From IMG/VR virus record IMGVR_UViG_3300042544_001887: a stretch of DNA of 64,000 bases. The stretch is one strand, 5' to 3'. Position 1 is the first letter of the stretch; the number at the start of each line of letters is the position of its first letter. Under the pieces are notes generated by a model. The model made no database searches. It saw only the letters and a program-made list of their open reading frames with translations, and had not been told where the DNA came from. Positions 28,037-43,925 of the stretch are shown here, piece by piece. The DNA comes from a virus. Its lineage: Duplodnaviria > Heunggongvirae > Uroviricota > Caudoviricetes. The translations under genes were made by a program, and so were the position numbers.

Positions 28037-29113
28037 ATGAAATATGACGCTCTAGTCTTTATCGGCCGGTTCCAGCCGTTTCACAATGGACACAAGGCAA
28101 TTGTTGATGCCGCCCTTGAACGAGCAAAAGAAGTAATCATTGTAGTTGGTTCTAGCTTTTCTTCAAGGAATATCCGAAATCCTTTTACATTTGATGAACG
28201 CAGACAGATGATTAAAGCTGTGTTCCCGCAGGAGAACGTTAAAGTCGTTCCTGTTAGCGATTACCCGTATGATGATAATAAATGGGTTCATGCTGTGCAA
28301 AACGTAGTTCGCGGTGCGATGCGTTGGAGTGCTGATCCGATTCGAGTTGGCCTTATCGGCCATGAAAAGGACGGATCTAGCTACTACTTGAAAATCTTCA
28401 AGCCGCTAGGTTGGGGTAACGTTAGCGTAAACAACGTCGACGGCGTTAATGCAACAGACATTCGCAATATGTTGTTTGCATCTGCTCCGGATAGTTCAAC
28501 TATTCTTCCAACTATTGTCCATAAAATTTATGAACAATTTGTTCATAAAACTATGAATAAACAGGCAGTAGAAACTATGCACTCACTGATTATAAAAGAT
28601 GGAGTTGTATCACCATGGTTTGAAACGCTGTTCCAAGAATACCAAATGATCAAGAAGTACAAGGAAGCATGGAAAGCTGCTCCATTCCCTCCTACTTTCA
28701 TGACTGTTGATGCTGTTGTTGTTCAAAGCGGACACATCCTTCTTGTGAAACGTGGCGACATGCCTGGTAAAGGTCTTTGGGCTTTGCCCGGTGGGTTCCT
28801 TAATCAAGGTGAAACAATGCTTGACGGTGCCATTCGTGAACTCAAAGAAGAAACTAAAATCAAAGTTGCTGTGCCTGTACTAAAGGGTTCTATTAAAGCG
28901 TTTAACACTTTTGATGCACCTAACCGCAGCCAGCGTGGACGTACTATTACACAGGCGTTCTACATTGACCTTGGCTTTGCAGAAGAACTTCCTAAAGTAA
29001 AAGGCAGCGACGATGCAGAAAAAGCGTTTTGGGTTCCGTTTCACAAAGTGAAACAAGAACTTATGTTCGAAGATCACTTTCATATTATCGACCATTTTGT
29101 TAACATTGGGTAA
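28037..29113 (+). CDS. nadM: bifunctional NMN adenylyltransferase / Nudix hydrolase (NadM-Nudix type)
   Basis: N-terminal GRFQPFHNGH (HxGH) nucleotidyltransferase motif; C-terminal Nudix box GGFLNQGETMLDGAIRELKEETKI. Confidence 0.85.
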   Translation: MKYDALVFIGRFQPFHNGHKAIVDAALERAKEVIIVVGSSFSSRNIRNPFTFDERRQMIKAVFPQENVKVVPVSDYPYDDNKWVHAVQNVVRGAMRWSADPIRVGLIGHEKDGSSYYLKIFKPLGWGNVSVNNVDGVNATDIRNMLFASAPDSSTILPTIVHKIYEQFVHKTMNKQAVETMHSLIIKDGVVSPWFETLFQEYQMIKKYKEAWKAAPFPPTFMTVDAVVVQSGHILLVKRGDMPGKGLWALPGGFLNQGETMLDGAIRELKEETKIKVAVPVLKGSIKAFNTFDAPNRSQRGRTITQAFYIDLGFAEELPKVKGSDDAEKAFWVPFHKVKQELMFEDHFHIIDHFVNIG

Positions 29114-29117
29114 AACT

Positions 29118-29411
29118 ATGAGAATTATTGAACCTGGTAAAGTCGGCAAAACGTGGACCATTAAACACCGTTGCACCGGTTGGGGGAATAGCGACAATGG
29201 TTGCGAAGCACTTCTTGAACTGGAATTCGACGATCTTAGATTTTACGAAGGTCAAGAATTTCCTTGGCGAGTTAGCGAACCTGCTGTATGTTTTAAGTGT
29301 CCGTGCTGCGGAAAAATTACTGACCTTGGGCTAAATGATTGGCCCACAGGTTACCGAAATCTTGAACGGTGGTCTAGTGAATGGTGTGATGCCAGACCTG
29401 ACGCTGCTTAA
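29118..29411 (+). CDS. Zn-ribbon hypothetical protein
   Basis: HRCTGWGNSDNGC ... CFKCPCCG. Confidence 0.4.
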   Translation: MRIIEPGKVGKTWTIKHRCTGWGNSDNGCEALLELEFDDLRFYEGQEFPWRVSEPAVCFKCPCCGKITDLGLNDWPTGYRNLERWSSEWCDARPDAA

Positions 29412-29463
29412 GAAAAAGTCCAACTCAGAGAGAGTTGGCATTAACGTTTAGAGGAGTTCTAAA

Positions 29464-30918
29464 ATGACAAACGTACTAAATCTACTAACTGCTATTATTC
29501 GCACTGACAGCTATAAGCTGAGCCAGTGGCTACAATATCCAAAGGACACTGTCCGTATTAGTTCATACATCGAAAGTCGTGGTGGCGAAGACGAATCGGT
29601 ATTCTTTGGTCTACAAGCGTTCATTAAACAGTATATGATGACACCGATTACTGTAGCAGATATCAATCGTGCTGAACTTATTGTAAAAGCACACGGACTG
29701 CCTTTCAACAGAGAAGGTTGGGAAATCATCGTCAAAGAATACGGCGGCATTCTGCCGTTGGAAATCGAAGCTGTTCCTGAAGGTACCGTTATGGAGACCC
29801 ATAACGTGCAAGTGCAGATTGTTAATACCGATCCACGCTTGTTCTGGTTGACCTCATATGTTGAAACTGCAATGCTTCGCGGCATTTGGTATCCTTCAAC
29901 TGTTGCTACAAAGAGCCGTAAAATGAAGAAACTCATTGCTGCTGCTCTTGAACTAACTAGCGACGTTCCTGTTAACGATCAAATCATGTTCAAGCTACAC
30001 GACTTTGGTGCTCGTGGTGCAAGTTCTTCTGAAACTGCAATGCTTGGTGGTATGGGTCACCTTGTTAACTTTATGGGTACTGACACTGTGGAAGCACTTG
30101 TTGGTGCAATGGAATATTACAACACAGACTCTGTACCTGGGTTTAGTATTCCTGCTAGTGAACACTCAACAATCACTAGCTGGGGTGGTCCTGCTGGAGA
30201 AGTTGTAGCATTTGAAAACATGATCAATACATTTGCCGGTCCCGGTAAACTGTATGCTTGTGTTAGCGACAGCTACGACATTTACTCTGCCGCACGTGAC
30301 TTGTGGGGCGGCGTTCTAAAAGAAAAAGTCATTGCTGCCGGCGGCACCTTGGTGGTACGTCCGGACTCAGGTGATCCTACTACAGTTCCGATTGAAGTTA
30401 TTGGCATCCTTATGGATCGCTTTGGATACACTGTTAACAGCAAAGGCTACCGAGTACTTCCTCCTTACATCCGTCTAATCCAAGGAGATGGTATCAACGA
30501 AAAAACTTTGCCTAAGATCTTGTCAAACATGGTTGAAGCAGGTTACAGCATTGATAACATTGCATTTGGTATGGGCGGTGGCTTGCTACAAGCGTGGAAC
30601 CGTGATACACTCAAGTATGCTATGAAAGCTAGTGCTAGACAGGATACTGAGGGTGTATGGCACGATGTCTTTAAAGATCCGATCTCAGACCGCGGCAAAG
30701 TGTCTAAAAAAGGTCGTCTTGGATTAGTTTATGAGTGCGGGATTGGAAACTGCGGTTATAGAACTCTTCCAAAGTCGGTTGCTGACAAAAAAGGCAACCT
30801 ACTGAGAACTGTATATCGCAACGGTGAACTCTTAATTGAGGACACTTTTGAAAATATTCGCAATCGTGCAAAACTTAAAGTGGAGGAATACACTCATGAT
30901 GTCGTTGAAAGATATTGA
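29464..30918 (+). CDS. nadV: nicotinamide phosphoribosyltransferase (NAMPT/NadV)
   Basis: N-terminal TDSYK motif, 484 aa, NAPRTase-family signatures. Confidence 0.9.
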   Translation: MTNVLNLLTAIIRTDSYKLSQWLQYPKDTVRISSYIESRGGEDESVFFGLQAFIKQYMMTPITVADINRAELIVKAHGLPFNREGWEIIVKEYGGILPLEIEAVPEGTVMETHNVQVQIVNTDPRLFWLTSYVETAMLRGIWYPSTVATKSRKMKKLIAAALELTSDVPVNDQIMFKLHDFGARGASSSETAMLGGMGHLVNFMGTDTVEALVGAMEYYNTDSVPGFSIPASEHSTITSWGGPAGEVVAFENMINTFAGPGKLYACVSDSYDIYSAARDLWGGVLKEKVIAAGGTLVVRPDSGDPTTVPIEVIGILMDRFGYTVNSKGYRVLPPYIRLIQGDGINEKTLPKILSNMVEAGYSIDNIAFGMGGGLLQAWNRDTLKYAMKASARQDTEGVWHDVFKDPISDRGKVSKKGRLGLVYECGIGNCGYRTLPKSVADKKGNLLRTVYRNGELLIEDTFENIRNRAKLKVEEYTHDVVERY

Positions 30919-33157: not shown

Positions 33158-33378
33158 GAGAATACAGACTTAGGAAATTTCAAGCAACAGATGATGAAAC
33201 GCAATCTCGTATGGTTTTTTCTAAGTTTTATAAAGCAACAGAGATTGCTATGAAAGTAGCACAAGAAGATGCCGGAAACGATACTGTTTTGCAATGGACA
33301 GAAACTTCAAAAGATTTTCTCGAAAGCCAAACAACTTCTACTACATACGATATAAAAACTATTACACTTGAGGAATGA
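33154..33378 (+). CDS. hypothetical protein
   Basis: 74 aa. Confidence 0.4.
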   Translation: MREYRLRKFQATDDETQSRMVFSKFYKATEIAMKVAQEDAGNDTVLQWTETSKDFLESQTTSTTYDIKTITLEE

Positions 33379-33766
33379 CATGAAATTTTCTTCTGAACTA
33401 ATCTACTCTGCTGTTAACTTTGTGCAAATTGCTAACAAGGAACTTGGCAACATTGCAGATGAAAAGATCGAAGCAATGTTTGATGCGTTTGACCCTGCAC
33501 TGCGTAGGCAGATTCTTATGCACATGATCAAAGGAGATATTACAGGTCCTATCAGTATTCGTTTTGATCATTCAGCTAAAATGCCAAACAAGATTCAAGC
33601 AATCAAAGCAGTTCGTTGGATTTCGGGCATGGGACTCAAAGAAGCTAAAGAGTTTGTCGAAGAAGCAGAAGCCGGAAAGGTTGCTACTATTGTTGGTAAC
33701 TTCGATGTTAAACAACGTAGGCAGTTTTCTCTTGAACTTGCTAACACAGGCTACGAGGTAGTATGA
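33368..33766 (+). CDS. hypothetical protein
   Basis: 132 aa. Confidence 0.45.
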   Translation: MRNDMKFSSELIYSAVNFVQIANKELGNIADEKIEAMFDAFDPALRRQILMHMIKGDITGPISIRFDHSAKMPNKIQAIKAVRWISGMGLKEAKEFVEEAEAGKVATIVGNFDVKQRRQFSLELANTGYEVV

Positions 33767-34005
33767 GTATGAAGTGGAAAACCAAGCACGAACCGAGACA
33801 ATGGGAAAAACGCATAGTAACATACTTTGCATTTCTTCCTACTAAACTAGACGACGGTTATACTGTGTGGCTACAATCGTATTGGGCAGTTGAGTCATGG
33901 GATGATGGCACTACCAGCATAGGGTTTGGATACTGGAAAACAAAGCACACTAGTTCAACACACCCTGACCGACCTAACACTGGCTCACCTGTAAGACGAC
34001 CATAA
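33763..34005 (+). CDS. hypothetical Trp-rich protein
   Basis: 80 aa. Confidence 0.4.
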   Translation: MSMKWKTKHEPRQWEKRIVTYFAFLPTKLDDGYTVWLQSYWAVESWDDGTTSIGFGYWKTKHTSSTHPDRPNTGSPVRRP

Positions 34006-34043
34006 AATGATTAAACTACAAATTCAAACAAAGGAAAAAAGAA

Positions 34044-34241
34044 TTGTCTGAACAAACTATGAGCGAATTAGAAGAAATGATCGTGGAAGACATGCGTGAA
34101 TGGGTAACTGTTAAGTTACTAAACGGTGAAGACATGTTTGTACACCTTGACGAAATTAGTATTAACGAAGGCGAAGATGCCTATCAAAAAAAACTAAAAG
34201 AATTTACCGATATTTACTGGCGTGATCATTTGTGGCCATAA
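34044..34241 (+). CDS. small acidic protein
   Basis: 65 aa. Confidence 0.4.
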   Translation: MSEQTMSELEEMIVEDMREWVTVKLLNGEDMFVHLDEISINEGEDAYQKKLKEFTDIYWRDHLWP

Positions 34242-34250
34242 ATATCAGAC

Positions 34251-34340
34251 GGAGAGTTGGTTGAGCGGCCGATAACACTCGTCTACTAAACGAGCAGGGG
34301 GTAATGCCCCTCGTGGGTTCGAATCCCACACTCTCCGCCA
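34251..34340 (+). tRNA. tRNA-Ser, type II, apparent anticodon ACT (A34)
   Basis: acceptor ggagagt/actctcc, anticodon stem ctcgt/acgag with loop ctACTaa, long variable arm, T-loop ttcgaat, CCA. Confidence 0.6.
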
Positions 34341-34357
34341 AAAATATAAATACTTAC

Positions 34358-34729
34358 ATGCTAATAAATGAAATTTTTACCGGGTATACATTAAAAGACT
34401 GGACAACTGTTGAATTGCTGGAAAGTTCTGGTAATTGGATGACCACTCAAACGACTGCATATAAAAAAGGATTAAAATTCTATTCAAAAAATGCAGTCGT
34501 TATGAACAGTTTAAGTGAATTGCTTGGGTTTATACAGCAACATACGTCACCACCGCCAACTGATTCTTATCCTCCAAAATTTAATGTACACATGATTCCA
34601 AAACATAAATATTATTCCAGAGAACTTTGGTCACATCTAAAAGGACAAAATATTGGACTATTGTTTAGTGTTGAACCAGGAGTTATAAATTTAAGATGTA
34701 TAGGAACACATGACGGATGCGGTATTTAA
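34358..34729 (+). CDS. hypothetical protein
   Basis: track ORF start lies inside tRNA; first ATG after tRNA used. Confidence 0.4.
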   Translation: MLINEIFTGYTLKDWTTVELLESSGNWMTTQTTAYKKGLKFYSKNAVVMNSLSELLGFIQQHTSPPPTDSYPPKFNVHMIPKHKYYSRELWSHLKGQNIGLLFSVEPGVINLRCIGTHDGCGI

Positions 34730-34737
34730 AAAATATA

Positions 34738-34766
34738 TTGACACACATCTCTAACTATGTTACTAC
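34738..34766 (+). promoter_or_regulatory. possible sigma70 promoter
   Basis: TTGACA-N17-TACTAC. Confidence 0.3.
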
Positions 34767-34797
34767 AGTAATAACAAAACTAGTAGGAGCAAAGACA

Positions 34798-34917
34798 GTG
34801 TACAACGAAAGTGATATGACTAACATTGAAACTGTTCAATCGCTTGAAAAGCATCTCGAAGAAATTGCAGTTGAAAAACCAAAACCGAGACGCGGCAGAC
34901 CGAAAAAAGATAAATAA
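34798..34917 (+). CDS. small AT-hook-like DNA-binding protein
   Basis: GTG start after TAGGAG RBS; C-terminal PRRGRPKK. Confidence 0.3.
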   Translation: MYNESDMTNIETVQSLEKHLEEIAVEKPKPRRGRPKKDK

Positions 34918-35067
34918 AAGATAAATAAAATAAAGAGGAAAAGACTTTCTATGAACTTAACGAGTGCATCATCGCTAGTATGGACAAACGGATTACAAAA
35001 TCCGGGCAATGATCTATGCTCGGAGGGTTATGGAAACGGTTAACAATGAGTTAACAAAAAATTCCAA

Positions 35068-35103
35068 AAACCCTCCAAGCAAGAAGCTTAGGAGGGTTTT
35101 TTA
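35068..35103 (+). terminator. intrinsic terminator
   Basis: ccctcc...ggaggg stem then TTTTTT. Confidence 0.65.
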
Positions 35104-35105
35104 AT

Positions 35106-35240
35106 ATGAACACGAAAGTTTTAAGAGACTATAAGGCACTACTAAAAGACTACAACGAAGGCAAAATTAGTTACAAAGAATTTGTTGATCAAACACTTCC
35201 GCTGTGGAATAAATTAAACAACTTGTTCGAAAAAGATTAA
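35106..35240 (+). CDS. small hypothetical protein (44 aa)
   Basis: ATG 9 nt after the terminator 3' arm (TAGGAGGG) which doubles as RBS. Confidence 0.35.
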   Translation: MNTKVLRDYKALLKDYNEGKISYKEFVDQTLPLWNKLNNLFEKD

Positions 35241-35248
35241 AAAAGCAG

Positions 35249-35277
35249 TTGACATAGAGTAAAACATACACTATATT
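35249..35277 (+). promoter_or_regulatory. strong sigma70 consensus promoter (tRNA operon)
   Basis: TTGACA-N17-TATATT. Confidence 0.6.
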
Positions 35278-35316
35278 AACTAAACAAACAAAAAATAAAA
35301 CGTAACGCAAGTTACA

Positions 35317-35329
35317 CGCTCTTTGACAA
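35317..35329 (+). promoter_or_regulatory. boxA-like antitermination element
   Basis: CGCTCTTTGACAA vs E. coli rrn boxA TGCTCTTTAACAA. Confidence 0.45.
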
Positions 35330-35414
35330 TTTAGATTTGTTGTTTACATCGTAAGATGTAGTAAACAACGCTCACTTAGACGCAAGTCGATAATAGTGGG
35401 GGTAAGTAGAGAAT

Positions 35415-35466
35415 GACTCTACTTACACGTATTAACTGGTAGCTGGTTCGATTCCGGCGTAGAGTC
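35415..35466 (+). ncRNA. truncated tRNA-like hairpin RNA
   Basis: 7-bp acceptor-like stem gactcta/tagagtc plus ctgg-ttcgatt-ccgg T-arm, no D/anticodon arms. Confidence 0.25.
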
Positions 35467-35823
35467 TAGGTGACTATGAAAGGTTTGATTCCTTTGTACT
35501 ACTGGTGTAGCAAATTGGACGACAGTCCGCCAAGTTAGTACGTGTAAGTAGAGTCGAGCAATTGAATTATTCGATGCTGTGAAGTATTTCTAACAGCATT
35601 TGATGATTGTGCCATGTGGTAAAAAGATTGCTTACAGCTAGAAAAAAGCTGACTACAATAATACACGGTAATAGAAAAGACCAAATCTTTTTTAACATCG
35701 TGTATTTATAGAAAAAACTAGTGCAGGAGGATAACTCTGTAAGTCACAAGAACAACGGTGCCGCATGACTCAATTGCGGTTAAATTACCCGAGTAGTGCC
35801 GGGCAGAGCCAAACACACAATGT

Positions 35824-35899
35824 TCCTCGTTAGCTCAGTTGGTAGAGTATTTGACTGTTAATCAAAGTGTCGCTGGTTCGAGCCCAGCACGAGGAGCCA
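35824..35899 (+). tRNA. tRNA-Asn (GTT)
   Basis: acceptor tcctcgt/acgagga, loop ctGTTaa, CCA. Confidence 0.7.
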
Positions 35900-35966
35900 A
35901 AATTGAGAAGGGGATAAACACGGCAGTCTCATTGCGTAGCAACGGTGCCCTTTCTTTTAGAATAAT

Positions 35967-36043
35967 GCATCGGTATAGCTCAGCTGGTAGAGCAGCGGTC
36001 TCCAAAACCGCGTGTCCTGGGTTCGAATCCTAGTGCCGGTGCC
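35967..36043 (+). tRNA. tRNA-Trp (CCA)
   Basis: acceptor gcatcgg/ccggtgc, loop ctCCAaa, T-loop gttcgaatc; 3' CCA not encoded. Confidence 0.6.
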
Positions 36044-36051
36044 AAAAATAC

Positions 36052-36143
36052 GGATTGATGGGTGAGAGGCTTAAACCAGCAGATTGCTAATCTGTCGTAC
36101 CTTGTAAAGGGTACCGAGGGTTCGAATCCCTCTCGATCCGCCA
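36052..36143 (+). tRNA. tRNA-Ser (GCT), type II
   Basis: acceptor ggattga/tcgatcc, loop ttGCTaa, long variable arm, T-loop ttcgaat, CCA. Confidence 0.65.
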
Positions 36144-36154
36144 GAATAAGATAC

Positions 36155-36229
36155 GGGCTGTTGGTATAGTTGGGAACACAGTAGCTTTGCAAGCTTCAAT
36201 CACCGGTTCGAACCCGGTACGGTCCACCA
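36155..36229 (+). tRNA. tRNA-Ala (TGC)
   Basis: acceptor gggctgt/acggtcc with G3-U70 Ala identity pair, loop ttTGCaa, T-loop ttcgaac, CCA. Confidence 0.65.
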
Positions 36230-36236
36230 AAATAAT

Positions 36237-36280
36237 GCGGGATTAACTCAGTGGTAGATAAATACTTTAAATAGGAGATA
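36237..36280 (+). pseudogene. tRNA 5'-half remnant (duplicate of tRNA-Val 5' end)
   Basis: gcgggattaactcagtggtaga mirrors 5' end of tRNA at 36693; 3' half replaced by HNH gene RBS and ORF. Confidence 0.4.
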
Positions 36281-36288
36281 CTCTACCA

Positions 36289-36702
36289 ATGGCTAAAACG
36301 TTCAACTGTTTAAATTGTAGTAAAGAAAGTAAATGGAGTTATAGCAGCACTAACAAGTATTGCAGCGGCGATTGCTTTCAAGAACACAAATGGAAAACTG
36401 TAAAAAAACTTGAAGTAGAAGCAGGGTTAGTCAATGACGGAAGCCCTGCGTTAAAAAAATACCTTGTTGAAACAAAAGGTGAATGCTGTGAAGAGTGCAA
36501 AGTTGGCACTGTTTACAACGGAAAGCCATTAACACTAACTGTTGATCATATTGATGGTAATAGTGATAATAACTTTCCAGGCAACCTTAGACTTTTATGT
36601 CCTAATTGTCACAGTCAAACTGAAACATACAAAGGACGAAACAAAAAGAATAGTGCTCGTTCTCGATATATGAGAAAGTATAGAGATAATTTGCGGAATT
36701 AG
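36289..36702 (+). CDS. HNH homing endonuclease
   Basis: CxxC...CEECK...HIDGNSDNNFPGNLRLLCPNCH HNH motif; AGGAG RBS; embedded in tRNA cluster. Confidence 0.8.
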   Translation: MAKTFNCLNCSKESKWSYSSTNKYCSGDCFQEHKWKTVKKLEVEAGLVNDGSPALKKYLVETKGECCEECKVGTVYNGKPLTLTVDHIDGNSDNNFPGNLRLLCPNCHSQTETYKGRNKKNSARSRYMRKYRDNLRN

Positions 36703-36767
36703 CTCAGTGGTAGAGCAGGGGTTTTACACACCTCAGGCCGGGAGTTCGACCCTCTCATTCCGCACCA
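36693..36767 (+). tRNA. tRNA-Val (TAC)
   Basis: acceptor gcggaat/attccgc, loop ttTACac, T-loop ttcgacc, CCA; 5' end overlaps HNH stop. Confidence 0.7.
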
Positions 36768-36769
36768 AG

Positions 36770-36871
36770 TTTAGACTGGATATAATCACCCCTTGTGAGG
36801 GTGGCCCAAGGACTCAGTAACGAGATACAGCGAAGGGTTGTTGGTCAAGGCTGCAAACAGCCCAGTCTAAA
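36770..36871 (+). ncRNA. structured spacer RNA closed by 10-bp stem (tttagactgg/ccagtctaaa)
   Basis: perfect long-range stem with internal hairpins (cacccttgtgagggtg, ggctgcaaacagcc). Confidence 0.35.
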
Positions 36872-36878
36872 GCAATAC

Positions 36879-36967
36879 GGACACTTGGCAGAGATGGATT
36901 ATTGCACCGGTCTTGAAAACCGACGAACCGCAAGGTTCCCAGGGTTCGAATCCCTGAGTGTCCGCCA
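36879..36967 (+). tRNA. tRNA-Ser (TGA), type II
   Basis: acceptor ggacact/agtgtcc, loop ctTGAaa, long variable arm, T-loop ttcgaat, CCA. Confidence 0.65.
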
Positions 36968-37043
36968 TAAGCACACTAGCATCAGGCTAGTCCAGACCGT
37001 AAGGTTAACGGTGACAAGCGGGGAGAGACCCGCACAAAAATAC

Positions 37044-37120
37044 GGCCTGTTAGTCGAGTGGTTTAAGATGCCTGCCTGTCACGCAGGAGATGATGGGTTC
37101 AATTCCCATACAGGTCGCCA
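37044..37120 (+). tRNA. tRNA-Asp (GTC)
   Basis: acceptor ggcctgt/acaggtc, stem cctgc/gcagg loop ctGTCac, T-loop ttcaatt, CCA. Confidence 0.7.
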
Positions 37121-37135
37121 AATTGAAAGGAAGGC

Positions 37136-37233
37136 TCATAGTTTACGTTTAGCCCGTTACGACGGTTTGGGCGGAAAATGGTTGAGTCACGGCACGGGCG
37201 GGTCGGGGGCTGCGTGACGGCATTGAACTATGA
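37136..37233 (+). ncRNA. structured spacer RNA closed by 8-bp stem (tcatagtt/aactatga)
   Basis: long-range stem plus GC-rich hairpin gtcacg...cgtgac. Confidence 0.3.
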
Positions 37234-37272
37234 AGCAGTTGTCGGTCTGCGTTAACAAACACCGTCAAAATT

Positions 37273-37346
37273 GCGGGTATGGTGTAGCGGTAACATGCGA
37301 GCCTTCCAAGCTCTTGTCACGAGTTCGAATCTCGTTACCCGCTCCA
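37273..37346 (+). tRNA. tRNA-Gly (TCC)
   Basis: acceptor gcgggta/tacccgc, loop ctTCCaa, T-loop ttcgaat, CCA. Confidence 0.7.
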
Positions 37347-37371
37347 ATTTATCCGTATGTGAGAGGACAAT

Positions 37372-37638
37372 ATGAAAACAGAAGATGAAAAGAGAGAATT
37401 TTACGAGCGTTGCTCCTCTATGTTAGGAATAGCTCACGTTTACAACACGCCAGTTCCACGACGCAATAGATGGAACGCAAGACGACTGGGCAACGGACGT
37501 TATCCAGGATTTGGACTAATACAGTGCTACGGAAACGGAGCAAGAGTAGTTAGTCGACAAGGAACACGTATGTTTTATACATACGAAGCAGTTTATGAAT
37601 ATTTGCAGATTGTGCTTGACGCAACTGCAAAAGCGTAG
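37372..37638 (+). CDS. hypothetical protein inside tRNA cluster
   Basis: 88 aa, GAGAGGACAATATG RBS. Confidence 0.45.
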   Translation: MKTEDEKREFYERCSSMLGIAHVYNTPVPRRNRWNARRLGNGRYPGFGLIQCYGNGARVVSRQGTRMFYTYEAVYEYLQIVLDATAKA

Positions 37639-37653
37639 TATAAAAACTATAAC

Positions 37654-37729
37654 GCCCTTATAGCTCAGCTGGTAGAGCATCTGATTTGTAATCAGAGGGT
37701 CGGCGGTTCAAGTCCGTCTGGGGGCACCA
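37654..37729 (+). tRNA. tRNA-Thr (TGT)
   Basis: acceptor gccctta/tgggggc, stem tctga/tcaga loop ttTGTaa, T-loop ttcaagt, CCA. Confidence 0.7.
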
Positions 37730-37736
37730 AAATTAT

Positions 37737-37812
37737 GTCGCGTTAGCAAAAGGTTAATGCGTGTCCTGTGCAAAGGACAAGGACGGTGGTTAAACTCCCC
37801 GACGCGACTCCA
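37737..37812 (+). ncRNA. atypical tRNA-like gene (perfect acceptor+CCA, 8-nt anticodon-position loop, degenerate T-arm)
   Basis: acceptor gtcgcgt/acgcgac, D-stem gca/tgc, stem tgtcc/ggaca with loop tgtgcaaa, no TTC T-loop. Confidence 0.35.
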
Positions 37813-37818
37813 AATAAT

Positions 37819-37900
37819 GCGGATGTGGTGTAATGGTAGCCACGCTGGTCTTAGAAGCCAGTGCGTAAGCGTGAGAGTTCGAGTCTCTCCATCCGCACCA
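37819..37900 (+). tRNA. tRNA-Leu (TAG), type II
   Basis: acceptor gcggatg/catccgc, loop ctTAGaa, long variable arm, T-loop ttcgagt, CCA. Confidence 0.7.
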
Positions 37901-37944
37901 AAATATTTCTTATCTTAAAAAGTTTTAAATTTAGAAAGATTAAC

Positions 37945-38388
37945 ATGCAATTTTATGAAAAAGTAACTTTTTTACCAAGCATTCCAGAAGGTTTAATAAA
38001 ACCTTTAGATATAATCGAATCGATGCCGAATGTTTTTCCAGATCCGGATTACGCTCATACTTATGCCAGCTATAAGGCAAATGACGATTTACAAGCTTGG
38101 GCACAAAGTTATTTTGACTTTCCTGTACTTGCAAGATATCAGGTGATTAAACAACAATTGCCTATTCATGTTGACGTTGGAATTGTAGGAATAAAATATA
38201 ACTACCTTATTAGCAGGGGTGGTGACGATGTAAAAACAAGATGGTGGGATAGTGTAGAAAATCCTTCAAAAATACTTTTTGAAACTACTTCGCCATTACG
38301 TGTGTGGCACAGCTTAAACATCGAAGTGCCACACGATATAACAGAAATTAGTTATCCTAGAATTAGTGTAACTATAAGAAAAAAATAG
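37945..38388 (+). CDS. hypothetical protein
   Basis: first ATG after tRNA-Leu; track ORF start overlaps the tRNA. Confidence 0.4.
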   Translation: MQFYEKVTFLPSIPEGLIKPLDIIESMPNVFPDPDYAHTYASYKANDDLQAWAQSYFDFPVLARYQVIKQQLPIHVDVGIVGIKYNYLISRGGDDVKTRWWDSVENPSKILFETTSPLRVWHSLNIEVPHDITEISYPRISVTIRKK

Positions 38389-38416
38389 TAATAACTTTTT
38401 TAAAGAAAAATACTGT

Positions 38417-38492
38417 TGGGAAGTAGCTCAATTGGTAGAGTAGCGGACTTTGAATCCGTTGGTTGGTGGTTCGAATCCACCCTTCCCAGCCA
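38417..38492 (+). tRNA. tRNA-Gln (TTG)
   Basis: U1-A72 acceptor tgggaag/cttccca, loop ctTTGaa, T-arm ggtgg-ttcgaat-ccacc, CCA. Confidence 0.7.
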
Positions 38493-38498
38493 AGATAT

Positions 38499-38575
38499 CG
38501 GAGTATAGCACAGCCTGGTAGTGCGATGGTTTTGGGTACCATAGGTCGAGGGTTCGAATCCTTCTACTCCGACCA
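38499..38575 (+). tRNA. tRNA-Pro (TGG)
   Basis: C1-G72 acceptor cggagta/tactccg, stem atggt/accat loop ttTGGgt, T-loop ttcgaat, CCA. Confidence 0.7.
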
Positions 38576-38792
38576 CGATTAAACTGTTGATCTAACCTCG
38601 GACTCGAACAAATAGCCATAGGCTTAGGCAGGTAGTACGGCGGATTAGTGTTAGACAACATTCGGACCAAGTAATCCGTGAGGTCCAGCTATTAGTGATG
38701 GCGGGGACGAACAAGCGGCTGATTTGGTATCAGTCGTGAGGCGGTAAGCTGCACCATAGGTGTCGTAGGCCGGGACTTGTTCAATTTATTAT

Positions 38793-38870
38793 CTGGGTAT
38801 AGCTCAGTCTGTGAAGAGTGCTCGCCTTGGAAGCGAGAGGTCGCTGGTTCAAATCCAGTTACCCAGACCA
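38793..38870 (+). tRNA. tRNA with TGG-type anticodon loop (second Pro-like, identity uncertain)
   Basis: acceptor ctgggta/tacccag, stem ctcgc/gcgag loop ctTGGaa, T-loop ttcaaat, CCA. Confidence 0.5.
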
Positions 38871-38877
38871 AAATAAC

Positions 38878-38952
38878 GCGGTGTTGGACAAGATGGATTG
38901 TCAGAGGATTCTAAACCTTAGTAGGCAGGATCGTTACCTGTACGCCGCACCA
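38878..38952 (+). ncRNA. 75-nt tRNA-like gene with candidate CUA (amber-reading) anticodon and swapped A54/U58 T-loop
   Basis: perfect cloverleaf spacing 7/2/4/8/4/1/5/7/5/4/5/7/5/7+A+CCA; acceptor gcggtgt/acgccgc, D-arm gaca/tgtc, T-stem gcagg/cctgt loop atcgtta; anticodon stem weak (3 of 5 bp), loop ttCTAaa. Confidence 0.3.
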
Positions 38953-39065
38953 ATACACACATATGATGCCGTAGCCCGACGCTGGTATGTGTGAAACCTA
39001 AATATCGGGCATGTAATTTAATAAAGGAAAGAAAAATGTCGTAGATTGAATATGCTTGTAAAGAT

Positions 39066-39602
39066 GTGGTGTTCCACTTTAACAAAAAACACTTGGAAGA
39101 TGAAACTATTCCGATGTGGGTGATTAAGTTTCGAGGCGAAACCTATTATGTAAATCATGTCGAATGTAGTGTTCCGTGGAGTACAAAAGAAACGCCTGAT
39201 AACAATCACACTAAAGGCAGTATCAAAGTCAAGGATTGTTTAGTTATTATTGATGATGAGAACTGTGCTAACATTCGTGTGTTAACTCCAGCAGATCGTT
39301 TGCGTCTTACTAAAGAACAAACTGTAAGAGTTATTACCGAGCAAGGAGCAAAACTGCGTACTGCACTACAGAACATGGCACATGGTCCGATTAAGTTAGC
39401 AGGTGGAGGATGTGGCACTACTTGGTATATCACAGATATTCCCAGTAAGAAACATTTAACAATACTACAACTACAGATTCCTTATATTAGGCAATTGATG
39501 CCCAATGAGGATTATTACAAGAAATATGATCAAACATCTTCAGATACTGAATGGTTAGATGATGATGACGACTACGAGTGGGAAGACCTTTATGAAAATT
39601 GA
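39066..39602 (+). CDS. hypothetical protein
   Basis: 178 aa. Confidence 0.45.
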   Translation: MVFHFNKKHLEDETIPMWVIKFRGETYYVNHVECSVPWSTKETPDNNHTKGSIKVKDCLVIIDDENCANIRVLTPADRLRLTKEQTVRVITEQGAKLRTALQNMAHGPIKLAGGGCGTTWYITDIPSKKHLTILQLQIPYIRQLMPNEDYYKKYDQTSSDTEWLDDDDDYEWEDLYEN

Positions 39603-39771
39603 AGTGCCTCACTCGTTACTAAAAGAAGTCTGTGCTACAATTCGTCAATTCAAATTAAGGCACGGGCCATTCTACAAACTGTTAAATAGCTATAGGATAT
39701 ATTTGTATCCAAGTAGTAAATTAAGTTTGTTTTTGATTAAACATTCTAGCACTGTTACAGTGCTAGAATAA
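39592..39771 (+). CDS. small hypothetical protein (59 aa)
   Basis: ATG overlapping upstream stop. Confidence 0.3.
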   Translation: MKIEVPHSLLKEVCATIRQFKLRHGPFYKLLNSYRIYLYPSSKLSLFLIKHSSTVTVLE

Positions 39772-39772
39772 T

Positions 39773-39847
39773 GCGGGCGTAGCTCAGGGGTAGAGCGTCA
39801 CCTTGCCAAGGTGAATGTCGTGGGTTCGAATCCCATCGCCCGCTCCA
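39773..39847 (+). tRNA. tRNA-Gly (GCC)
   Basis: acceptor gcgggcg/cgcccgc, stem tcacc/ggtga loop ttGCCaa, T-loop ttcgaat, CCA; preceded by 10-bp hairpin 39745-39768. Confidence 0.7.
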
Positions 39848-39865
39848 ATTGTTGAAAGATATTGT

Positions 39866-40447
39866 ATGAGTAAAATAGAGCACTTTTATCATCTTCCGCA
39901 CTTCGAAGAAGAATGGTTTACATATTCGGCTTTATATTCTGATATGGTAGCTAAATTTCCATCCGGAAGTAAGTTTGTTGAAGTCGGTTGTTGGAAGGGA
40001 AGATCTGCTGCTTATATGTGTGTAGAAATTGCTAATTCAAAAAAAGACATTGATTTTTATTGTGTTGACTTTTGGCATGTATCAGCAGAGCATGAAATAG
40101 AAGAACCCCATCTAAAAAATTTGTATGAAATTTTTCTTTCTAATATGAAACCAGTTGAAGCTTTTTATAAGCCAATGAAAATACCGTCGTCTGATGCTGC
40201 AAAAAAATTTAAAGACGAAAGTTTAGATTTTGTTTTTATTGATGCTGGACATCAATACGATGAAGTAAAAGATGATATTCTTGCATGGTATCCAAAAATT
40301 AAAAAAGGTGGCATACTAGCAGGACATGATTTTTATCCAACTGAGCCAACTTGGGGAGATGTTTCTAAAGTAGTAAACGAACTTTTTCCAAATAATTATG
40401 AAGTTTTAATAGAACAAAGTTGCTTTCTAGTAAATAAGCCGGTATAG
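39866..40447 (+). CDS. class I SAM-dependent methyltransferase (CmcI/TylF-like)
   Basis: VEVGCWKGRSAAYM motif I-like, FIDAGHQYDEV, GGILAGHDF; stop overlaps next tRNA. Confidence 0.5.
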   Translation: MSKIEHFYHLPHFEEEWFTYSALYSDMVAKFPSGSKFVEVGCWKGRSAAYMCVEIANSKKDIDFYCVDFWHVSAEHEIEEPHLKNLYEIFLSNMKPVEAFYKPMKIPSSDAAKKFKDESLDFVFIDAGHQYDEVKDDILAWYPKIKKGGILAGHDFYPTEPTWGDVSKVVNELFPNNYEVLIEQSCFLVNKPV

Positions 40448-40511
40448 CTGAGTGGTTTAGCAGCTGATTAGTAATCAGCTGACGGGAGTTCGATTCTCTC
40501 TACCGGCACCA
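40438..40511 (+). tRNA. tRNA-Thr-like, apparent anticodon AGT (A34)
   Basis: acceptor gccggta/taccggc, stem gctga/tcagc loop ttAGTaa (part of 10-bp perfect palindrome), T-loop ttcgatt, CCA. Confidence 0.55.
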
Positions 40512-40546
40512 AATCTAAATTTTTTATTAATTAATAGGTATCCAAG

Positions 40547-41302
40547 TTGAAAATAGTCGACGAAAGAAAAGATCCAAATTTTGGAACAGTAATGAATTTT
40601 GAACATATTAGTTTGCCTCCTCAAGGGTATAACGGTAAACTGTTTTTAGATTTTTCTAAGTATGCTAATTTTGATTTTGAAAAAATGGATACAGAAATAT
40701 GTTTAGCATTATCAAAAATTGATTTAAATAAATATCCTATTGTTTCGGGGGTTATGCCTCCAAAATTAAAATACGGAATATTTGAAAATGAAGTAATGTA
40801 CAACTTTACTGGAGATAGAGAAAATTTAAAAAATCTTTCTCCAATGGAGATGCGTAAATTTTTGTTTTTTAAACACAAAACTCTTTTACCTTGGTTCTTT
40901 GTTGTAGACTTAAAACCGAGTCTCTTTTTTGAAAGATCGGAAGATAAACATCCGTGGAGCGAAGTTAGTAAACTTACTCCATATACAAGACAGTGCATTG
41001 AGAGTCTTCCTTTCAAATCAATAGGCAGAGTAGTTATATATGGATCTTGGCCACAAGCTGAAGTACCATGCCACAGAGATTGGATACCCGACGGTGTTTT
41101 CCATCATCATATAAATCTTAATCCTGGTGGATACAGACCAGTCTACATTTATGATCCTGAAACAGATACAAAGAATTATTTACCGGAAAGCTATAAGTTG
41201 TATGCTTATCAAACAACCGATTACCACGGCGTAGATGCTCTTACGCATTTTAGTTATACAATACGCATAGACGGAATTTATAATGACGACGTAGAATTGT
41301 AA
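40547..41302 (+). CDS. hypothetical protein (possible metal-binding HxD...H fold)
   Basis: 251 aa; PCHRDW and HHHINLN motifs only. Confidence 0.45.
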   Translation: MKIVDERKDPNFGTVMNFEHISLPPQGYNGKLFLDFSKYANFDFEKMDTEICLALSKIDLNKYPIVSGVMPPKLKYGIFENEVMYNFTGDRENLKNLSPMEMRKFLFFKHKTLLPWFFVVDLKPSLFFERSEDKHPWSEVSKLTPYTRQCIESLPFKSIGRVVIYGSWPQAEVPCHRDWIPDGVFHHHINLNPGGYRPVYIYDPETDTKNYLPESYKLYAYQTTDYHGVDALTHFSYTIRIDGIYNDDVEL

Positions 41303-41376
41303 TTTACAAATTTGAAAACGTTAAAAAACGATAATATAAATACTGTAAATTATTAACAAATAGTGAAATATATAAA

Positions 41377-42138
41377 ATGAATTATCACATAAAAAACTTT
41401 ATTATCCCTATACATGTCTTATTTTTAGTATCACTAATTGGTATGTATTTAAATATAATCGATTTTCATATTTGGTTATTTTTAATAGGGTGGACTTTGA
41501 TCTATGGGCTAGGTCTTGTTGTAGGATTTCATAAATTGTTATCCCATAGCTCTTTTAAAACAAACAAATACATATCTTATGTGTTAGCTTACTTAGGATG
41601 CTTAGGAATTAGCGGATCACCTATATGGTGGGCTGCTATACATAGAGGACATCATCATGCTCATACTGAGACTGAAAAAGACCTTCAAAGTCCACGTCGT
41701 GGATGGCTTACATCTTACATAGGTTGGCAGTTTGGTGAAGAAACAAGTAAAATAAGTTTAAAGTATGCATCTGATTTAATAAAAGATCCTTTTTATCTTT
41801 TTTTACACAAGAATTATAGATTAGTTGTTTGGAGTACAGTGATTATTGTTGGTATGTTGTCACCATCTGTTGCAGTTTCATTATTAATATTTCCGATGAT
41901 TGCAGCACACCATGGAGAAAATATTACCAATTCATTTGGTCATAGCAGGTTTGCTGGTTACAGAAATTTTAATACCAACGACGACACTATAAATAACCCA
42001 TTGTTAGCATTTATAACTTGGGGTCAGCTTTTGCATAACAATCATCATGCTAAGCCAAATAACGATAGTTTTGCCATTAAATGGTTTGAATTTGATCCAA
42101 CTTCTCCTTTTGTATGGATTTTAAAAAAACTAAAATAG
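41377..42138 (+). CDS. membrane fatty-acid desaturase (stearoyl-CoA desaturase-like)
   Basis: three His boxes HKLLSH, HRGHHHAH, HNNHHAKP plus TM helices. Confidence 0.75.
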   Translation: MNYHIKNFIIPIHVLFLVSLIGMYLNIIDFHIWLFLIGWTLIYGLGLVVGFHKLLSHSSFKTNKYISYVLAYLGCLGISGSPIWWAAIHRGHHHAHTETEKDLQSPRRGWLTSYIGWQFGEETSKISLKYASDLIKDPFYLFLHKNYRLVVWSTVIIVGMLSPSVAVSLLIFPMIAAHHGENITNSFGHSRFAGYRNFNTNDDTINNPLLAFITWGQLLHNNHHAKPNNDSFAIKWFEFDPTSPFVWILKKLK

Positions 42139-42195
42139 TTACAATATAAACATTTTTCTGTAACAGAAAAAAAATAAAAAAGTTGAAAAAAGTGG

Positions 42196-42224
42196 TTGAC
42201 CTTTGAGGCAACATGCACTATATT
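42196..42224 (+). promoter_or_regulatory. strong sigma70 consensus promoter
   Basis: TTGACC-N17-TATATT. Confidence 0.6.
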
Positions 42225-42255
42225 AACTACATAAGCAGCAAATGTGTTGCTTACA

Positions 42256-42268
42256 CGCTCTTTGAAAA
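42256..42268 (+). promoter_or_regulatory. boxA-like antitermination element
   Basis: CGCTCTTTGAAAA; same 22-nt leader as at 35308-35334. Confidence 0.45.
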
Positions 42269-42269
42269 T

Positions 42270-43370
42270 TTAGTAACTTAACTGCAATAATCAACAGTTT
42301 AGCGAAAGGCTAAAGATTGTGGTTGTGCTGAGTAATTAACAGTTTAAATCAGCAAGTGATGCGTGATTAGGTAAACTGTTGTTTATTGCAGTTTTTAAGA
42401 TGGGCGGCTTAGCGTCCACGTAAGGGTAAGTGCGGTAACGCACCCAAAGGCAGGTTTCCTATAAACTGCCGCCAGCAATGGTCCACCTAAGCAAGCCTGA
42501 ACTAAGGTTGACTCGGTTTAACCCGAAAGCAACCTCCGTCCTTAGGCGGGCGGTAGGCAGTAAGTTAGAGTTGTAGTCCGAAAGGATAGGCACAGAGCCG
42601 GTCGGTGAGTGCTAAGAGGCTGTGGTGGCTGAACTGCAACATACCAAACTAACGAATGCTGAAGGTTAACAGGTAGCTACACTGTCTGAGCCCGCAAGCA
42701 AAGGCATGGTAGCATCACAAGAGTGGAAGGGTTAGGCCCCGGATACTTGAAGTGACGTTGAGTAGCTCGCAAGGCAAAAGACAGTCGGTGTGTTGTATAC
42801 TGTATCTAACAAGGTATGGTGCAACTGGGACAGCACATCGAAGTAGGTTCGCAATATTGCATAACGGTAATGCAATCGTCTTATGAAACGATGGATTGTA
42901 GGTTCAACTCCTACTATTGAAACAAAAGCGAAAGACTGTCCCGGTACGTTGTGAAAGGTGGTTAATGCCACACTCGCAAGAGAATGTGGTCTACGGATGC
43001 TCGCAAGGCTGATGTAGTTGTTCGGAAAGATAGCGTAAGGGTTTAGCGACTCTGAACTGCTCGCAAGGCAGACGAAGGATAGAAGGACGAGTAGCAACGT
43101 GCGACGAGAGAAACGCCACTCTCCAAAAAAGGCACCACTGGGAGATACAGGATGACCGTAAAAGGCTTCTGTGGATAACGAGAGAACGTGGCTCGCAAGG
43201 CTAACGGTAATGCTCAAAGGCTCCTAACGCAAGGCATAATCTCAGCCTATGCAAAAGTTTAAGTTTTAACTAACTTAACTTGTTGAACAGTTTTCGAGTT
43301 CCGACCCACTTGGAAGTAGGCGACTACTCCATTTCCGAGACTGTTCAACTAGTTAAGTTTCTACTTTAAA
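42270..43370 (+). ncRNA. large structured non-coding RNA candidate (about 1.1 kb, ORF-free, GNRA-rich)
   Basis: no credible ORF on either strand; seven cgcaag motifs, four as GCTCGCAAGGC; many local and long-range stems; lies between boxA leader and tRNAs. Confidence 0.4.
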
Positions 43371-43371
43371 C

Positions 43372-43456
43372 AATACACAAGGCGTAGGCCACGCCGATGT
43401 TATGGTAACAGGTTTGCCTTGTGGCAGGCTCGGTGGTTCGATTCCACAGTGTATTG
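43372..43456 (+). ncRNA. tRNA-like RNA (acceptor, D-arm and T-arm present; anticodon arm aberrant)
   Basis: acceptor aatacac/gtgtatt, D-stem ggcg/cgcc, T-loop ttcgatt; no CCA. Confidence 0.3.
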
Positions 43457-43472
43457 TTTAAAATAGAATTAT

Positions 43473-43548
43473 TGCGGGGTAGAGAAGCGGCATCTCGTTT
43501 GGCTCATAACCAAAAGATCGTGGGTTCGAGTCCCACCCATCGCAACCA
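43473..43548 (+). tRNA. tRNA-Met/fMet-like (CAT)
   Basis: D-stem gaga/tctc, stem tttgg/ccaaa loop ctCATaa, T-arm gtggg-ttcgagt-cccac, 3' end cgcaacca like initiator tRNA; acceptor pairing imperfect. Confidence 0.55.
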
Positions 43549-43792: not shown

Positions 43793-43801
43793 ATTCTTTA
43801 T

Positions 43802-43885: not shown

Positions 43886-43899
43886 ATAAAAAACAATCA

Positions 43900-43924: not shown

Positions 43925-43925
43925 C

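Follow-up and report, generated by a model that had tools for sequence, protein, structure and literature searches.

A conserved three-strand RNA device bounding exchangeable RNA cassettes in the leader of a phage tRNA operon, with a layout like that of an rRNA operon leader

We analyzed the leader RNA that heads the second tRNA cluster in a 64-kb stretch of viral DNA (Caudoviricetes, IMG/VR record IMGVR_UViG_3300042544_001887; hereafter the window), a phage-like genome piece with 33 tRNA calls by ARAGORN and a gene content that includes rIIA/rIIB, an Rnl1-type RNA ligase, and NAD-salvage genes. The leader carries a three-strand device in which one strand (the arm, CUCUACUUAC) has two alternative partners, an upstream and a downstream copy (copies 1 and 2) of the sequence GUAAGUAGAG. 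Pairing with copy 1 gives a local hairpin (H1), and pairing with copy 2 gives a long-range stalk (P1) that encloses a small RNA, the cassette. An earlier note, made from the letters of this DNA alone, had described a structured leader with a repeated motif and tRNA-fragment-like hairpins; the leader, found here only in uncultured phage-like contigs, is conserved, modular, and more organized than that note saw. On balance, we favor the view, drawn by analogy, that it is a miniature leader of the rRNA operon (rrn) type, whose stalk would deliver and release small stable RNAs.

Results

The arm pairs with an upstream and a downstream copy of one repeat

The device consists of the following strands.

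35402-35426, + strand: H1, formed by copy 1 GUAAGUAGAG (35402-35411), a loop AAUGA, and the arm CUCUACUUAC (35417-35426)
35415-35439, + strand: 5' strand of stalk P1, GA plus arm CUCUACUUAC plus ACGUAUUAACUGG (minimum-energy and centroid folds; covariation)
35530-35555, + strand: 3' strand of stalk P1, CCAAGUUAGUACGU plus copy 2 GUAAGUAGAG plus UC (folds; covariation)

As DNA, H1 is a perfect 10-bp inverted repeat, GTAAGTAGAG-AATGA-CTCTACTTAC, with a folding energy of -12.0 kcal/mol, and copy 2 (GTAAGTAGAG) lies on the + strand at 35544-35553, 117 nucleotides (nt) beyond the arm. Both elements had been seen in the earlier note, which made the hairpin 9 bp long and placed the second copy at 35555, 11 nt too far downstream. 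The 10-mer has no further exact occurrence in the window. Because about nine perfect 10-bp hairpins are found in the window (0.6 are expected in shuffles), H1 by itself is unexceptional, and the case for the device therefore rests on conservation.

We collected relatives with exact-pattern scans of IMG/VR keyed on the hairpin, on the boxA block described below, and on the hairpin with a variable loop length, and metagenome and genome collections were scanned with patterns too. The hairpin patterns retrieved mostly chance matches from genome and metagenome contigs, 145 of 198 loci being without both boxA and a second copy; with chance matches filtered out there were 47 loci, representing 35 distinct leaders from viral and metagenome contigs (cited below by our L numbers). 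The only two real "genome" matches were 3-kb contigs in bins of metagenome-assembled genomes and are probably phage DNA. H1, the second copy, and both T-arm hairpins of the cassette recur in 35 distinct related contigs; the repeated motif and the T-arm-like hairpins of the earlier note are conserved features. The boxA block alone retrieved eight distinct leaders, all eight of which have the exact arm and copy 2. A blastn search of the leader against 50,697 GenBank phage records gave no match, and tblastn with rIIA found relatives at 38.5% identity or less only.

Stalk P1 is a 25-bp helix that includes a single bulge and a single G-U pair, and it appears in the minimum-energy fold as well as in the centroid fold. 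In all leaders, the 8 to 13 bases that follow the arm complement the bases just 5' of the next GUAAGUAGAG, extending the repeat pairing into a longer helix. When 29 distinct leaders were aligned without gaps (arm plus 11 bases, linker, 11 bases plus copy), 95.3% of stalk cells were paired, compared with 23 to 43% when the 3' partner was slid by 1 to 3 columns. Two-sided changes were found in 98 cells, against 34.5 +/- 4.2 in shuffles, and none of 500 shuffles scored as high. Seven pairs of the extension each occur as two to five pair types, and the 10-bp core is invariant within this set. The stalk extension thus covaries strongly.

A scan keyed only on boxA and an internal-loop hairpin (see below) reached distant lineages that have the same three-part layout in other sequences. 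Three such triads, written as copy 1/arm/copy 2, are GAAAACAGAA/CUCUGUUUUC/GAAAACAGAG, GGAAAUAGA/CUCUAUUUUC/GUAAAUAGAG, and AAAAGUA/UACUUUU/GAAAAGUAG. The triads were extracted manually with anchors, an automatic search for the device in distant lineages being too noisy. Across 11 aligned triads, copy 1 and the arm were 91.8% paired and the arm and copy 2 were 95.5% paired, with slid controls at 58% or less, and four pairs had changed on both sides in each of the two pairings. We concluded that both pairings of the arm are under selection. On the transcribed strand, G-U pairs outnumber A-C pairs by 17 to 7, and in second cassettes, whose arms are degenerate (UCUAUUUUCAC), G-U pairing joins the arm to the copy that follows; RNA structure is therefore favored over DNA structure as the object of this conservation.

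When 5' prefixes of 35395-35560 were folded with ViennaRNA, H1 was kept up to 35543 and the arm shifted as copy 2 appeared. The minimum-energy fold of this segment contains the stalk (-65.6 kcal/mol) and lies 11 kcal/mol below the fold with H1 enforced (-54.5 kcal/mol). Since the extension helix still forms when H1 is enforced, only the 10-bp part swaps partners. The whole 547-nt leader folds at -172.4 kcal/mol, compared with -126.5 +/- 7.3 kcal/mol for shuffles (z = -6.3), and its modules are conserved in relatives, in agreement with the noncoding, highly structured leader RNA of the earlier note. Coding potential was considered and rejected: no open reading frame (ORF) on either strand exceeds 49 amino acids, those on the + strand (22, 34, 22, and 21 amino acids, starting with GTG, TTG, or ATG) have no Shine-Dalgarno sequence in view upstream, as the note had reported, and the modules vary by indels.

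The leader has the order of parts of an rrn leader

Upstream and downstream of the device lie the following features.

35249-35277, + strand: sigma-70-type promoter, TTGACA/17 nt/TATATT (11 of 12 positions; top match within 33500-44500)
35302-35315, + strand: boxB-like hairpin GTAAC-GCAA-GTTAC, directly 5' of boxA (minimum-energy fold)
35314-35335, + strand: boxA block ACACGCTCTTTGACAATTTAGA, invariant in the leader alignment
35318-35329, + strand: boxA core GCTCTTTGACAA, about 35 nt past the predicted start
35339-35369, + strand: variable hairpin between boxA and the internal-loop hairpin (predicted fold)
35371-35400, + strand: asymmetric internal-loop hairpin, CAC-UUA/GAC-GCAA-GUC/GAUAAU-A-GUG, conserved, directly 5' of copy 1
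35824-35899, + strand: tRNA-Asn (GTT), the first tRNA of the operon (ARAGORN; Rfam tRNA, 66.9 bits)

Transcription probably starts near 35284, and the TTGACA and the -10 region are kept among relatives. A similar hairpin (GTAAG..GTTTAC) occupies the boxB-like position in relatives, in which boxA itself is invariant or nearly so; an exact-pattern scan with the boxA block found 12 viral contigs. The core GCTCTTTGACAA is identical at 11 of 12 positions to the Escherichia coli rrn boxA core, which we take to be GCTCTTTAACAA. The leader thus has a boxA consensus 3' of its promoter, and it has a strand (35415-35439) that pairs over at least 20 bp with a strand beyond the enclosed RNA (35530-35555), as is typical of rrn leaders. 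The complete order, namely promoter, hairpin, boxA, 5' strand of a helix of at least 20 bp, RNA, 3' strand, and tRNA, is that of an rrn leader.

The hairpin at 35339-35369 is present, absent, or altered in relatives, and the internal-loop hairpin that follows it is conserved in detail. The outer stem of the latter covaries (GTTC/GAAC, CTCC/GGAG, AGCT/AGCT, GGCT/AGCC, and CAC/GTG), its apical loop alternates between GNRA and UUCG, and its internal-loop bases, YUA opposite GAU-RA-U, are nearly invariant. It resembles a C/D-box kink-turn, in which a bulge of three nucleotides and then tandem sheared G.A/A.G pairs lie between a canonical and a noncanonical stem: the layout fits (a GAC/GUC stem, and GAU and RA-U facing YUA). 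However, position 2n is always U, and 7 of the 24 distinct sequences, that of the window among these, have A in place of the key G at 1b, for which reason we leave the hairpin unclassified as a kink-turn. MAFFT and RNAalifold missed this hairpin and the GG-loop hairpins of the cassette, in both cases because indels shift the register, and we read them by hand. In most relatives the H1 loop holds an extra stem of 8 to 9 bp with a conserved ACCAA loop, five pairs of which show compensatory changes; in the window, L001, and L003, this inner stem is absent and the loop is 5 nt long.

Regulatory readings of these hairpins were also considered and rejected. H1 is followed by ACGUAUUAAC, and the + strand has no terminator-like site in 35340-35823, which speaks against an intrinsic terminator or attenuator, a G+C-rich hairpin with a U tract behind it; no relevant Rfam cis-regulatory family, such as a riboswitch or T-box, matched at E <= 10; and an operator was likewise rejected.

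The same repeats bound different RNAs in different phages

In relatives, unrelated RNAs of 44 to 150 nt lie between the same repeats, and some leaders carry two or three cassettes in series, each terminated by a copy. In L146, the cassette known from the window is followed first by an additional one, flanked by copies 2 and 3, and then by a counterpart of the window's downstream sequence at 93% identity; the two leaders therefore differ by one whole cassette. Thus, the cassettes are exchangeable among phages at the repeats. In 18 of the 35 leaders, only UUUAU separates the last copy from the first tRNA (as called by ARAGORN, where checked), which is usually Asn. In the window, two further modules intervene.

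35554-35716, + strand: module C, length about 160 nt, folding predicted to give three or four hairpins, including 35573-35600 and 35661-35705
35717-35810, + strand: module D, length about 95 nt, hairpin GUGC-GGAG..CUCU-GUCAC and then a junction closed by CGG/GCC

Module C is 76 to 93% identical in L146, L001, L092, L012, and L116, and its structural support is weak because the consensus fold comes from five sequences and contains only four pairs with compensatory change. The junction of module D holds the two downstream stems that the earlier note had pointed out, CCGCA...TGCGG (35761-35779) and CCCG...CGGG (35788-35803). In eight distinct sequences, 9 of its 21 predicted pairs, including those of both stems, show compensatory changes. 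It ends 13 nt before tRNA-Asn in the window and is also found in mid-array in L211 (about positions 1890-2000), between two tRNAs, about 9 nt before the next one and far from any leader. Module D is therefore an independent element that precedes tRNAs.

The cassette contains two tRNA-type T-arms

The RNA enclosed by the stalk in the window folds into five hairpins.

35442-35528, + strand: cassette RNA in the stalk, 87 nt, five hairpins (fold z-score, -5.9)
35442-35458, + strand: T-arm 1, GCTGG-TTCGATT-CCGGC
35463-35475, + strand: GG-loop hairpin with loop UAGGU
35479-35495, + strand: T-arm 2, AAAGG-TTTGATT-CCTTT
35499-35510, + strand: GG-loop hairpin with loop UGGU
35517-35528, + strand: GGAC-GACA-GUCC hairpin

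The T-arm consensus is a stem of 4 to 5 bp closed by G53-C61 and a 7-nt loop, U54-U55-C56-R57-A58-N-N. The hairpins at 35442-35458 and 35479-35495, the second of which the earlier note had already picked out as T-arm-like, agree with this definition, T-arm 2 having U at position 56, where L143 has C. Elsewhere on the + strand, a scan of the window found T-arm hairpins outside called tRNAs only at 43433-43447 and, as a weak 4-bp TTTGAAA form, at 21145-21159. The first of these belongs to another small structure (43365-43462; fold z-score, -5.6), in which four hairpins are closed off by a 14-bp helix, UUUAAACAAUACAC/GUGUAUUGUUUAAA; the T-arm is the last hairpin, beside the 3' strand, and lies 10 nt before tRNA-Met. 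Neither ARAGORN nor Rfam calls a tRNA in 43365-43462.

The cassette is nearly identical in L143 and L146, and L003, L005, L015, L064, and L112 have a homologous, longer one with a third T-arm beside the 3' strand of the stalk. Compensatory changes in homologues are found in T-arm 2 and in the GACA hairpin. Position 56 of T-loop 2 and the second purine of the next loop are C and G in L143, U and G in the window, and U and A in L146, and this possible pair, a single event, matches G19-C56 of the tRNA elbow.

Within 35340-35823, no tRNA was called by ARAGORN, and RF00005 had no match at E <= 10. The sole match to the tRNA clan was tRNA-Sec (17.1 bits, E = 1.7; gathering score, 47), which covers an acceptor-like stem and a T-arm. 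This is the mini-tRNA that the earlier note had placed at 35415-35466. Its 8-bp acceptor pairing of GACTCTAC with GTAGAGTC exists in the window only; the closest homologues, L143 and L146, read GTAAAGTC and GTTGAGTC, respectively, and the bases 5' of CTCTAC differ too, so that both strands are changed. We rejected the mini-tRNA because these changes break the stem without compensation. Its 5' strand coincides with the arm, which serves H1 and the stalk as well, and it thus competes with both conserved pairings.

No Rfam family or description in the literature searched covers the leader

With Rfam, the whole window gave nothing but tRNAs and GOLLD at the gathering score, 35200-35900 gave no family for any part of the leader at E <= 10, and 15 related loci gave nothing beyond tRNAs and GOLLD. 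The earlier note's suggestion of a second unit of a large noncoding RNA family therefore found no support, since neither GOLLD nor another such family matched in the 35200-35900 search. A full-text literature search for the 10-mer returned unrelated primer and sequence matches only, a search on T4 stable RNAs and on boxA in phage tRNA operons returned nothing pertinent, and we found no description of this leader layout in the literature searched.

Neighboring genes

An ORF of 44 amino acids (35106-35240), with GGAGG 8 nt upstream and no PHROG match, sits past a terminator-like hairpin (about 35068-35100) and ahead of the leader promoter. Inside the tRNA array is an HNH endonuclease ORF (36289-36702), upstream of which GCGGGATTAACTCAGTGGTAGA (36237-36258) resembles the 5' half of a tRNA, so that 36237-36702 may represent a tRNA gene that is interrupted or carries an intron; similar 5' parts of tRNAs are followed by ORFs in L010 and L202. 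Farther away, an ORF of 1,019 amino acids (16476-19535) has KOW motifs of the NusG/Spt5-like kind, a sigma-70 region 1.1, and weak PHROG matches to antiterminator and MotB-like regulators; its product is possibly a phage transcription factor that could bear on boxA-led units. An ORF of 132 amino acids (33368-33766) resembles the C-terminal domain of ribosomal protein L7/L12 (E = 3.5e-9). An RNA-repair gene set (20422-22680 and 8206-8730), comprising two HAD_SAK_2 genes, an AAA_33 kinase-like gene, and the Rnl1-type RNA ligase gene, is consistent with the mending of cleaved tRNAs. The NAD-salvage genes (28037-30918) encode an NMNAT-Nudix fusion (28037-29113) and NAMPT (29464-30918).

Discussion

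A boxA-tethered stalk as a delivery and release device

The reading that we favor for this leader runs as follows. The transcript would start at the strong sigma-70-type promoter, and the boxB-like hairpin and boxA would, by analogy with rrn operons, recruit a host NusB/NusE antitermination complex. The conserved internal-loop hairpin would come next, followed by copy 1, the arm, and, 117 nt on, copy 2. During synthesis the arm would be held by copy 1 in H1, and when copy 2 emerged, the arm and about 13 following bases would switch to copy 2 and the bases preceding it, yielding a stalk of about 25 bp around the 87-nt, five-hairpin RNA with its two tRNA-type T-arms. We read the stalk as a processing and end-joining stem because the leader layout is that of an rRNA operon: like an rRNA processing stem, it would join the ends of the cassette and would be a likely release site for RNase III or end-trimming enzymes. 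It would also set the 5' side of the next element, which is a tRNA in about half of the relatives and modules C and D in the window. The processed stable RNA suggested in the earlier note is plausible on the same analogy, since it fits an anatomy in which a covarying 25-bp stalk lies 3' of boxA, as in rRNA operons, and a role of the T-arm module as a decoy for tRNA-processing enzymes, also raised there, is plausible as well.

In rrn operons, the elongation complex keeps hold of boxA, and through this tether the leader's strand of the 16S RNase III stem is "delivered" to the complementary strand downstream (PMC8632103). The same logic of tethered strand delivery would apply directly to the phage leader. 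The phage leader differs in that the RNA enclosed by its stalk is 44 to 150 nt long and varies by phage, whereas that of rrn is the 1.5-kb rRNA; in that its 5' strand has a second, upstream partner, copy 1; and in that it heads a tRNA array, Nus binding and RNase III cleavage being proposed by analogy only. In the way it works, the phage leader would thus come closest to an rrn leader in which the partner strand is duplicated and the cargo can be exchanged.

For the upstream partner there is another precedent. Wong, Sosnick and Pan reportedly showed in 2007 that transient non-native hairpins hold the upstream strands of long-range helices in RNase P RNA, SRP RNA, and tmRNA. In the prefix folding of the phage leader, too, a local hairpin keeps the 5' strand until its distal partner has been made, and H1 may be seen, by analogy, as a hard-wired form of such guard hairpins. 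Unlike in those hairpins, the putative decoy strand of the phage leader duplicates the final partner exactly, and the two covary across lineages, a much more explicit design, which we read from the sequence.

Several points weigh against this reading. RNase III cleavage and Nus dependence are analogies, and the phage is uncultured and has no GenBank relative. The rrn-like model gives no role for the cassette RNAs themselves. The family was mostly retrieved with the motif as the key, only two scans being independent of it, one for the boxA block and one that combined boxA and the internal-loop element, and the invariance of the 10-mer is for that reason partly a matter of ascertainment. The three-way covariation comes from few lineages and few independent events, and the register of copy 1 in the distant lineages was set by eye. 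The usual stalk of relatives contains a 2x2 internal loop (C.U/A.G), which cannot be essential because the window's version is fully paired. Finally, a guard role leaves unexplained both the conserved inner stem of H1 with its ACCAA loop and the loss of that stem in the window, L001, and L003.

Alternative readings

A different use of the same two pairings, which we consider possible though rather unlikely, is a register switch that gates processing, with a factor acting on copy 1, the internal-loop hairpin, or the tRNA-proximal copy to set the register. The array has one G-strand more than it has C-strands, so that exactly one copy would be left unpaired. In the left register (each copy with the arm of the same number), only short hairpins and cassette stems of 9 to 13 bp would form; in the right register (each arm with the next copy), the cassette stems would reach at least 20 bp, making them RNase III substrates, and the last copy, by the tRNA, would be sequestered. 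Setting the register would thereby regulate the release of cassettes and tRNA. Such a switch agrees with the conservation and covariation of both pairings, with the persistence of the extension helix when H1 is enforced, so that just the 10-bp part toggles, with the alternation of G- and C-strands in the multicassette leaders L037, L048, L021, L146, and L198, and with the position of the nearly invariant internal-loop hairpin directly 5' of copy 1. However, a one-way folding pathway explains the data equally, and the stalk has an advantage of about 11 kcal/mol in the window, so that an extra factor would be needed to keep the two registers in a regulated equilibrium.

Somewhat more doubtful is a reading centered on the cargo, in which the leader would be an RNA cassette array: a boxA-tethered, register-shifting stalk with n + 1 G-strands for n C-strands would take up exchangeable RNAs and gate their release, the cassettes being an accessory arsenal. 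Cassettes with several T-arms would each present two or three mimics of the tRNA elbow and titrate host factors that recognize the elbow or the T-arm, such as tRNA-targeting defense nucleases, RNase P, TruB, and TrmA. The possible 19-56-like pair between T-loop 2 and the GG loop hints at real elbow formation.

The repeats could instead work as DNA, providing target sites or sites of recombination for the gain and loss of cassettes, with the RNA pairing a by-product. We regard this as improbable. The cassette content of otherwise similar leaders does change exactly at the repeats, as in the window and L146, which differ by one cassette bounded by copies 2 and 3, and the HNH endonuclease gene (36289-36702) lies in the same tRNA array. 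Yet the extension beside each repeat is specific to its cassette and shows the covariation of a helix, the transcribed strand makes use of G-U pairs, the degenerate second arms pair only as RNA, recombination has no need of a three-way compensatory change, and no recombinase was found beside the leader. Deletion mediated by the repeats may still account for the indels, even if it is not what the repeats are for.

It is slightly more improbable still that the T-arm hairpins are functionless remnants of decayed tRNA genes and that the leader is a spacer. Phage tRNA arrays gain and lose genes, the hairpins match the T-arm consensus, and the weak tRNA-Sec-like Rfam match points the same way, but the T-arm stems stay paired through compensatory changes in divergent contigs, each T-arm is followed by a GG-loop hairpin, the module is enclosed by a conserved, covarying stalk and folds much more stably than shuffles (z = -5.9), and cassettes without T-arms occupy the same slot.

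Least probable of all is that the stalked T-arm cassette is a tRNA mimic of the YrlA-type Y RNA kind, with a stem that binds a Ro60 orthologue and a head that recruits an exonuclease or tRNA enzymes: the cassette and stalk, at about 140 nt with T-arms and GG loops, fit such an RNA, but no Rfam Y RNA or YrlA family matched at E <= 10, no TROVE/Ro60 domain was found with Pfam in the 30 window ORFs scanned (the genome extends past the window), the stalk is a plain helix with no bulged Ro-binding motif, and the cassettes in this slot are diverse. The three window ORFs of 450 to 490 amino acids encode NAMPT, an SPFH protein, and a DNA ligase.

Relation to other structured RNAs of phages

Y RNAs have a long terminal stem and a domain like a T-arm and D-arm, measure 80 to 130 nt, and are found in some phages (PMC4201824). 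The cassette is likewise a small RNA with a long terminal stem and with T-arm-like and GG-loop hairpins; it differs from YrlA RNAs in having two or three T-arms, where a Y RNA has one T/D pair, and in its place in the leader of a tRNA operon, in addition to the want of an Rfam match and of Ro60 in the scanned ORFs.

The tRNA cluster of phage T4 yields stable small RNAs, species 1 and 2 (rnaD and rnaC), which are cotranscribed with the tRNAs and processed and for which we know of no established function. The resemblance is that these, too, are small non-tRNA RNAs of a phage tRNA cluster, and the window has T4-like rIIA/rIIB and Rnl1 genes; the comparison is one of descriptions, and the T4 RNAs are not known to be cassettes that can be exchanged within a common, repeat-bounded stalk.

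Phage tRNA islands are also known to harbor the enigmatic large RNAs GOLLD and ROOL. A GOLLD RNA (RF02032; 191.8 bits) lies at 42785-43248, 7 kb downstream of the leader, and GOLLD is also present in the relatives L003, L008, L012, and L021. The leader shares this neighborhood with GOLLD and ROOL but differs from them in that its modules are small and separate and gave no GOLLD match. A separate promoter (42196-42224) precedes the window's GOLLD, as does another boxA block (42253-42275, with its boxA at 42257), past which a helix of about 20 bp (42276-42296/42376-42396) surrounds an element of about 80 nt (fold z-score, -4.0). This predicted structure has the same layout of a stalked cassette after boxA, in unrelated sequence. 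Some GOLLD loci have been reported with an embedded tRNA-like element, and here such an element, with a 4-base anticodon (ARAGORN) and an Rfam tRNA score of 44.8 bits, lies inside the GOLLD match at 42850-42923.

Significance

The leader adds to the RNAs of phage tRNA islands a family of small, structured RNAs without an Rfam match, with at least four structurally supported modules, the support being weak for module C and strong for the stalk and module D. It also adds an explicit three-strand device, in which one strand covaries with both of its alternative partners. The repeats GTAAGTAGAG ... CTCTACTTAC provide a simple key for finding such cassettes in metagenomes. If the rrn analogy is true, the leader would be a compact, tractable model for the boxA-tethered delivery of a leader strand to a distal partner and could reveal the way in which long-range RNA folding is guided by transient decoy hairpins. 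If the cassettes, and above all the tRNA-like T-arm RNAs, have a function, they would bear on why phages keep tRNA arrays and on the use of RNA to interfere with the tRNA enzymes or the defenses of the host.

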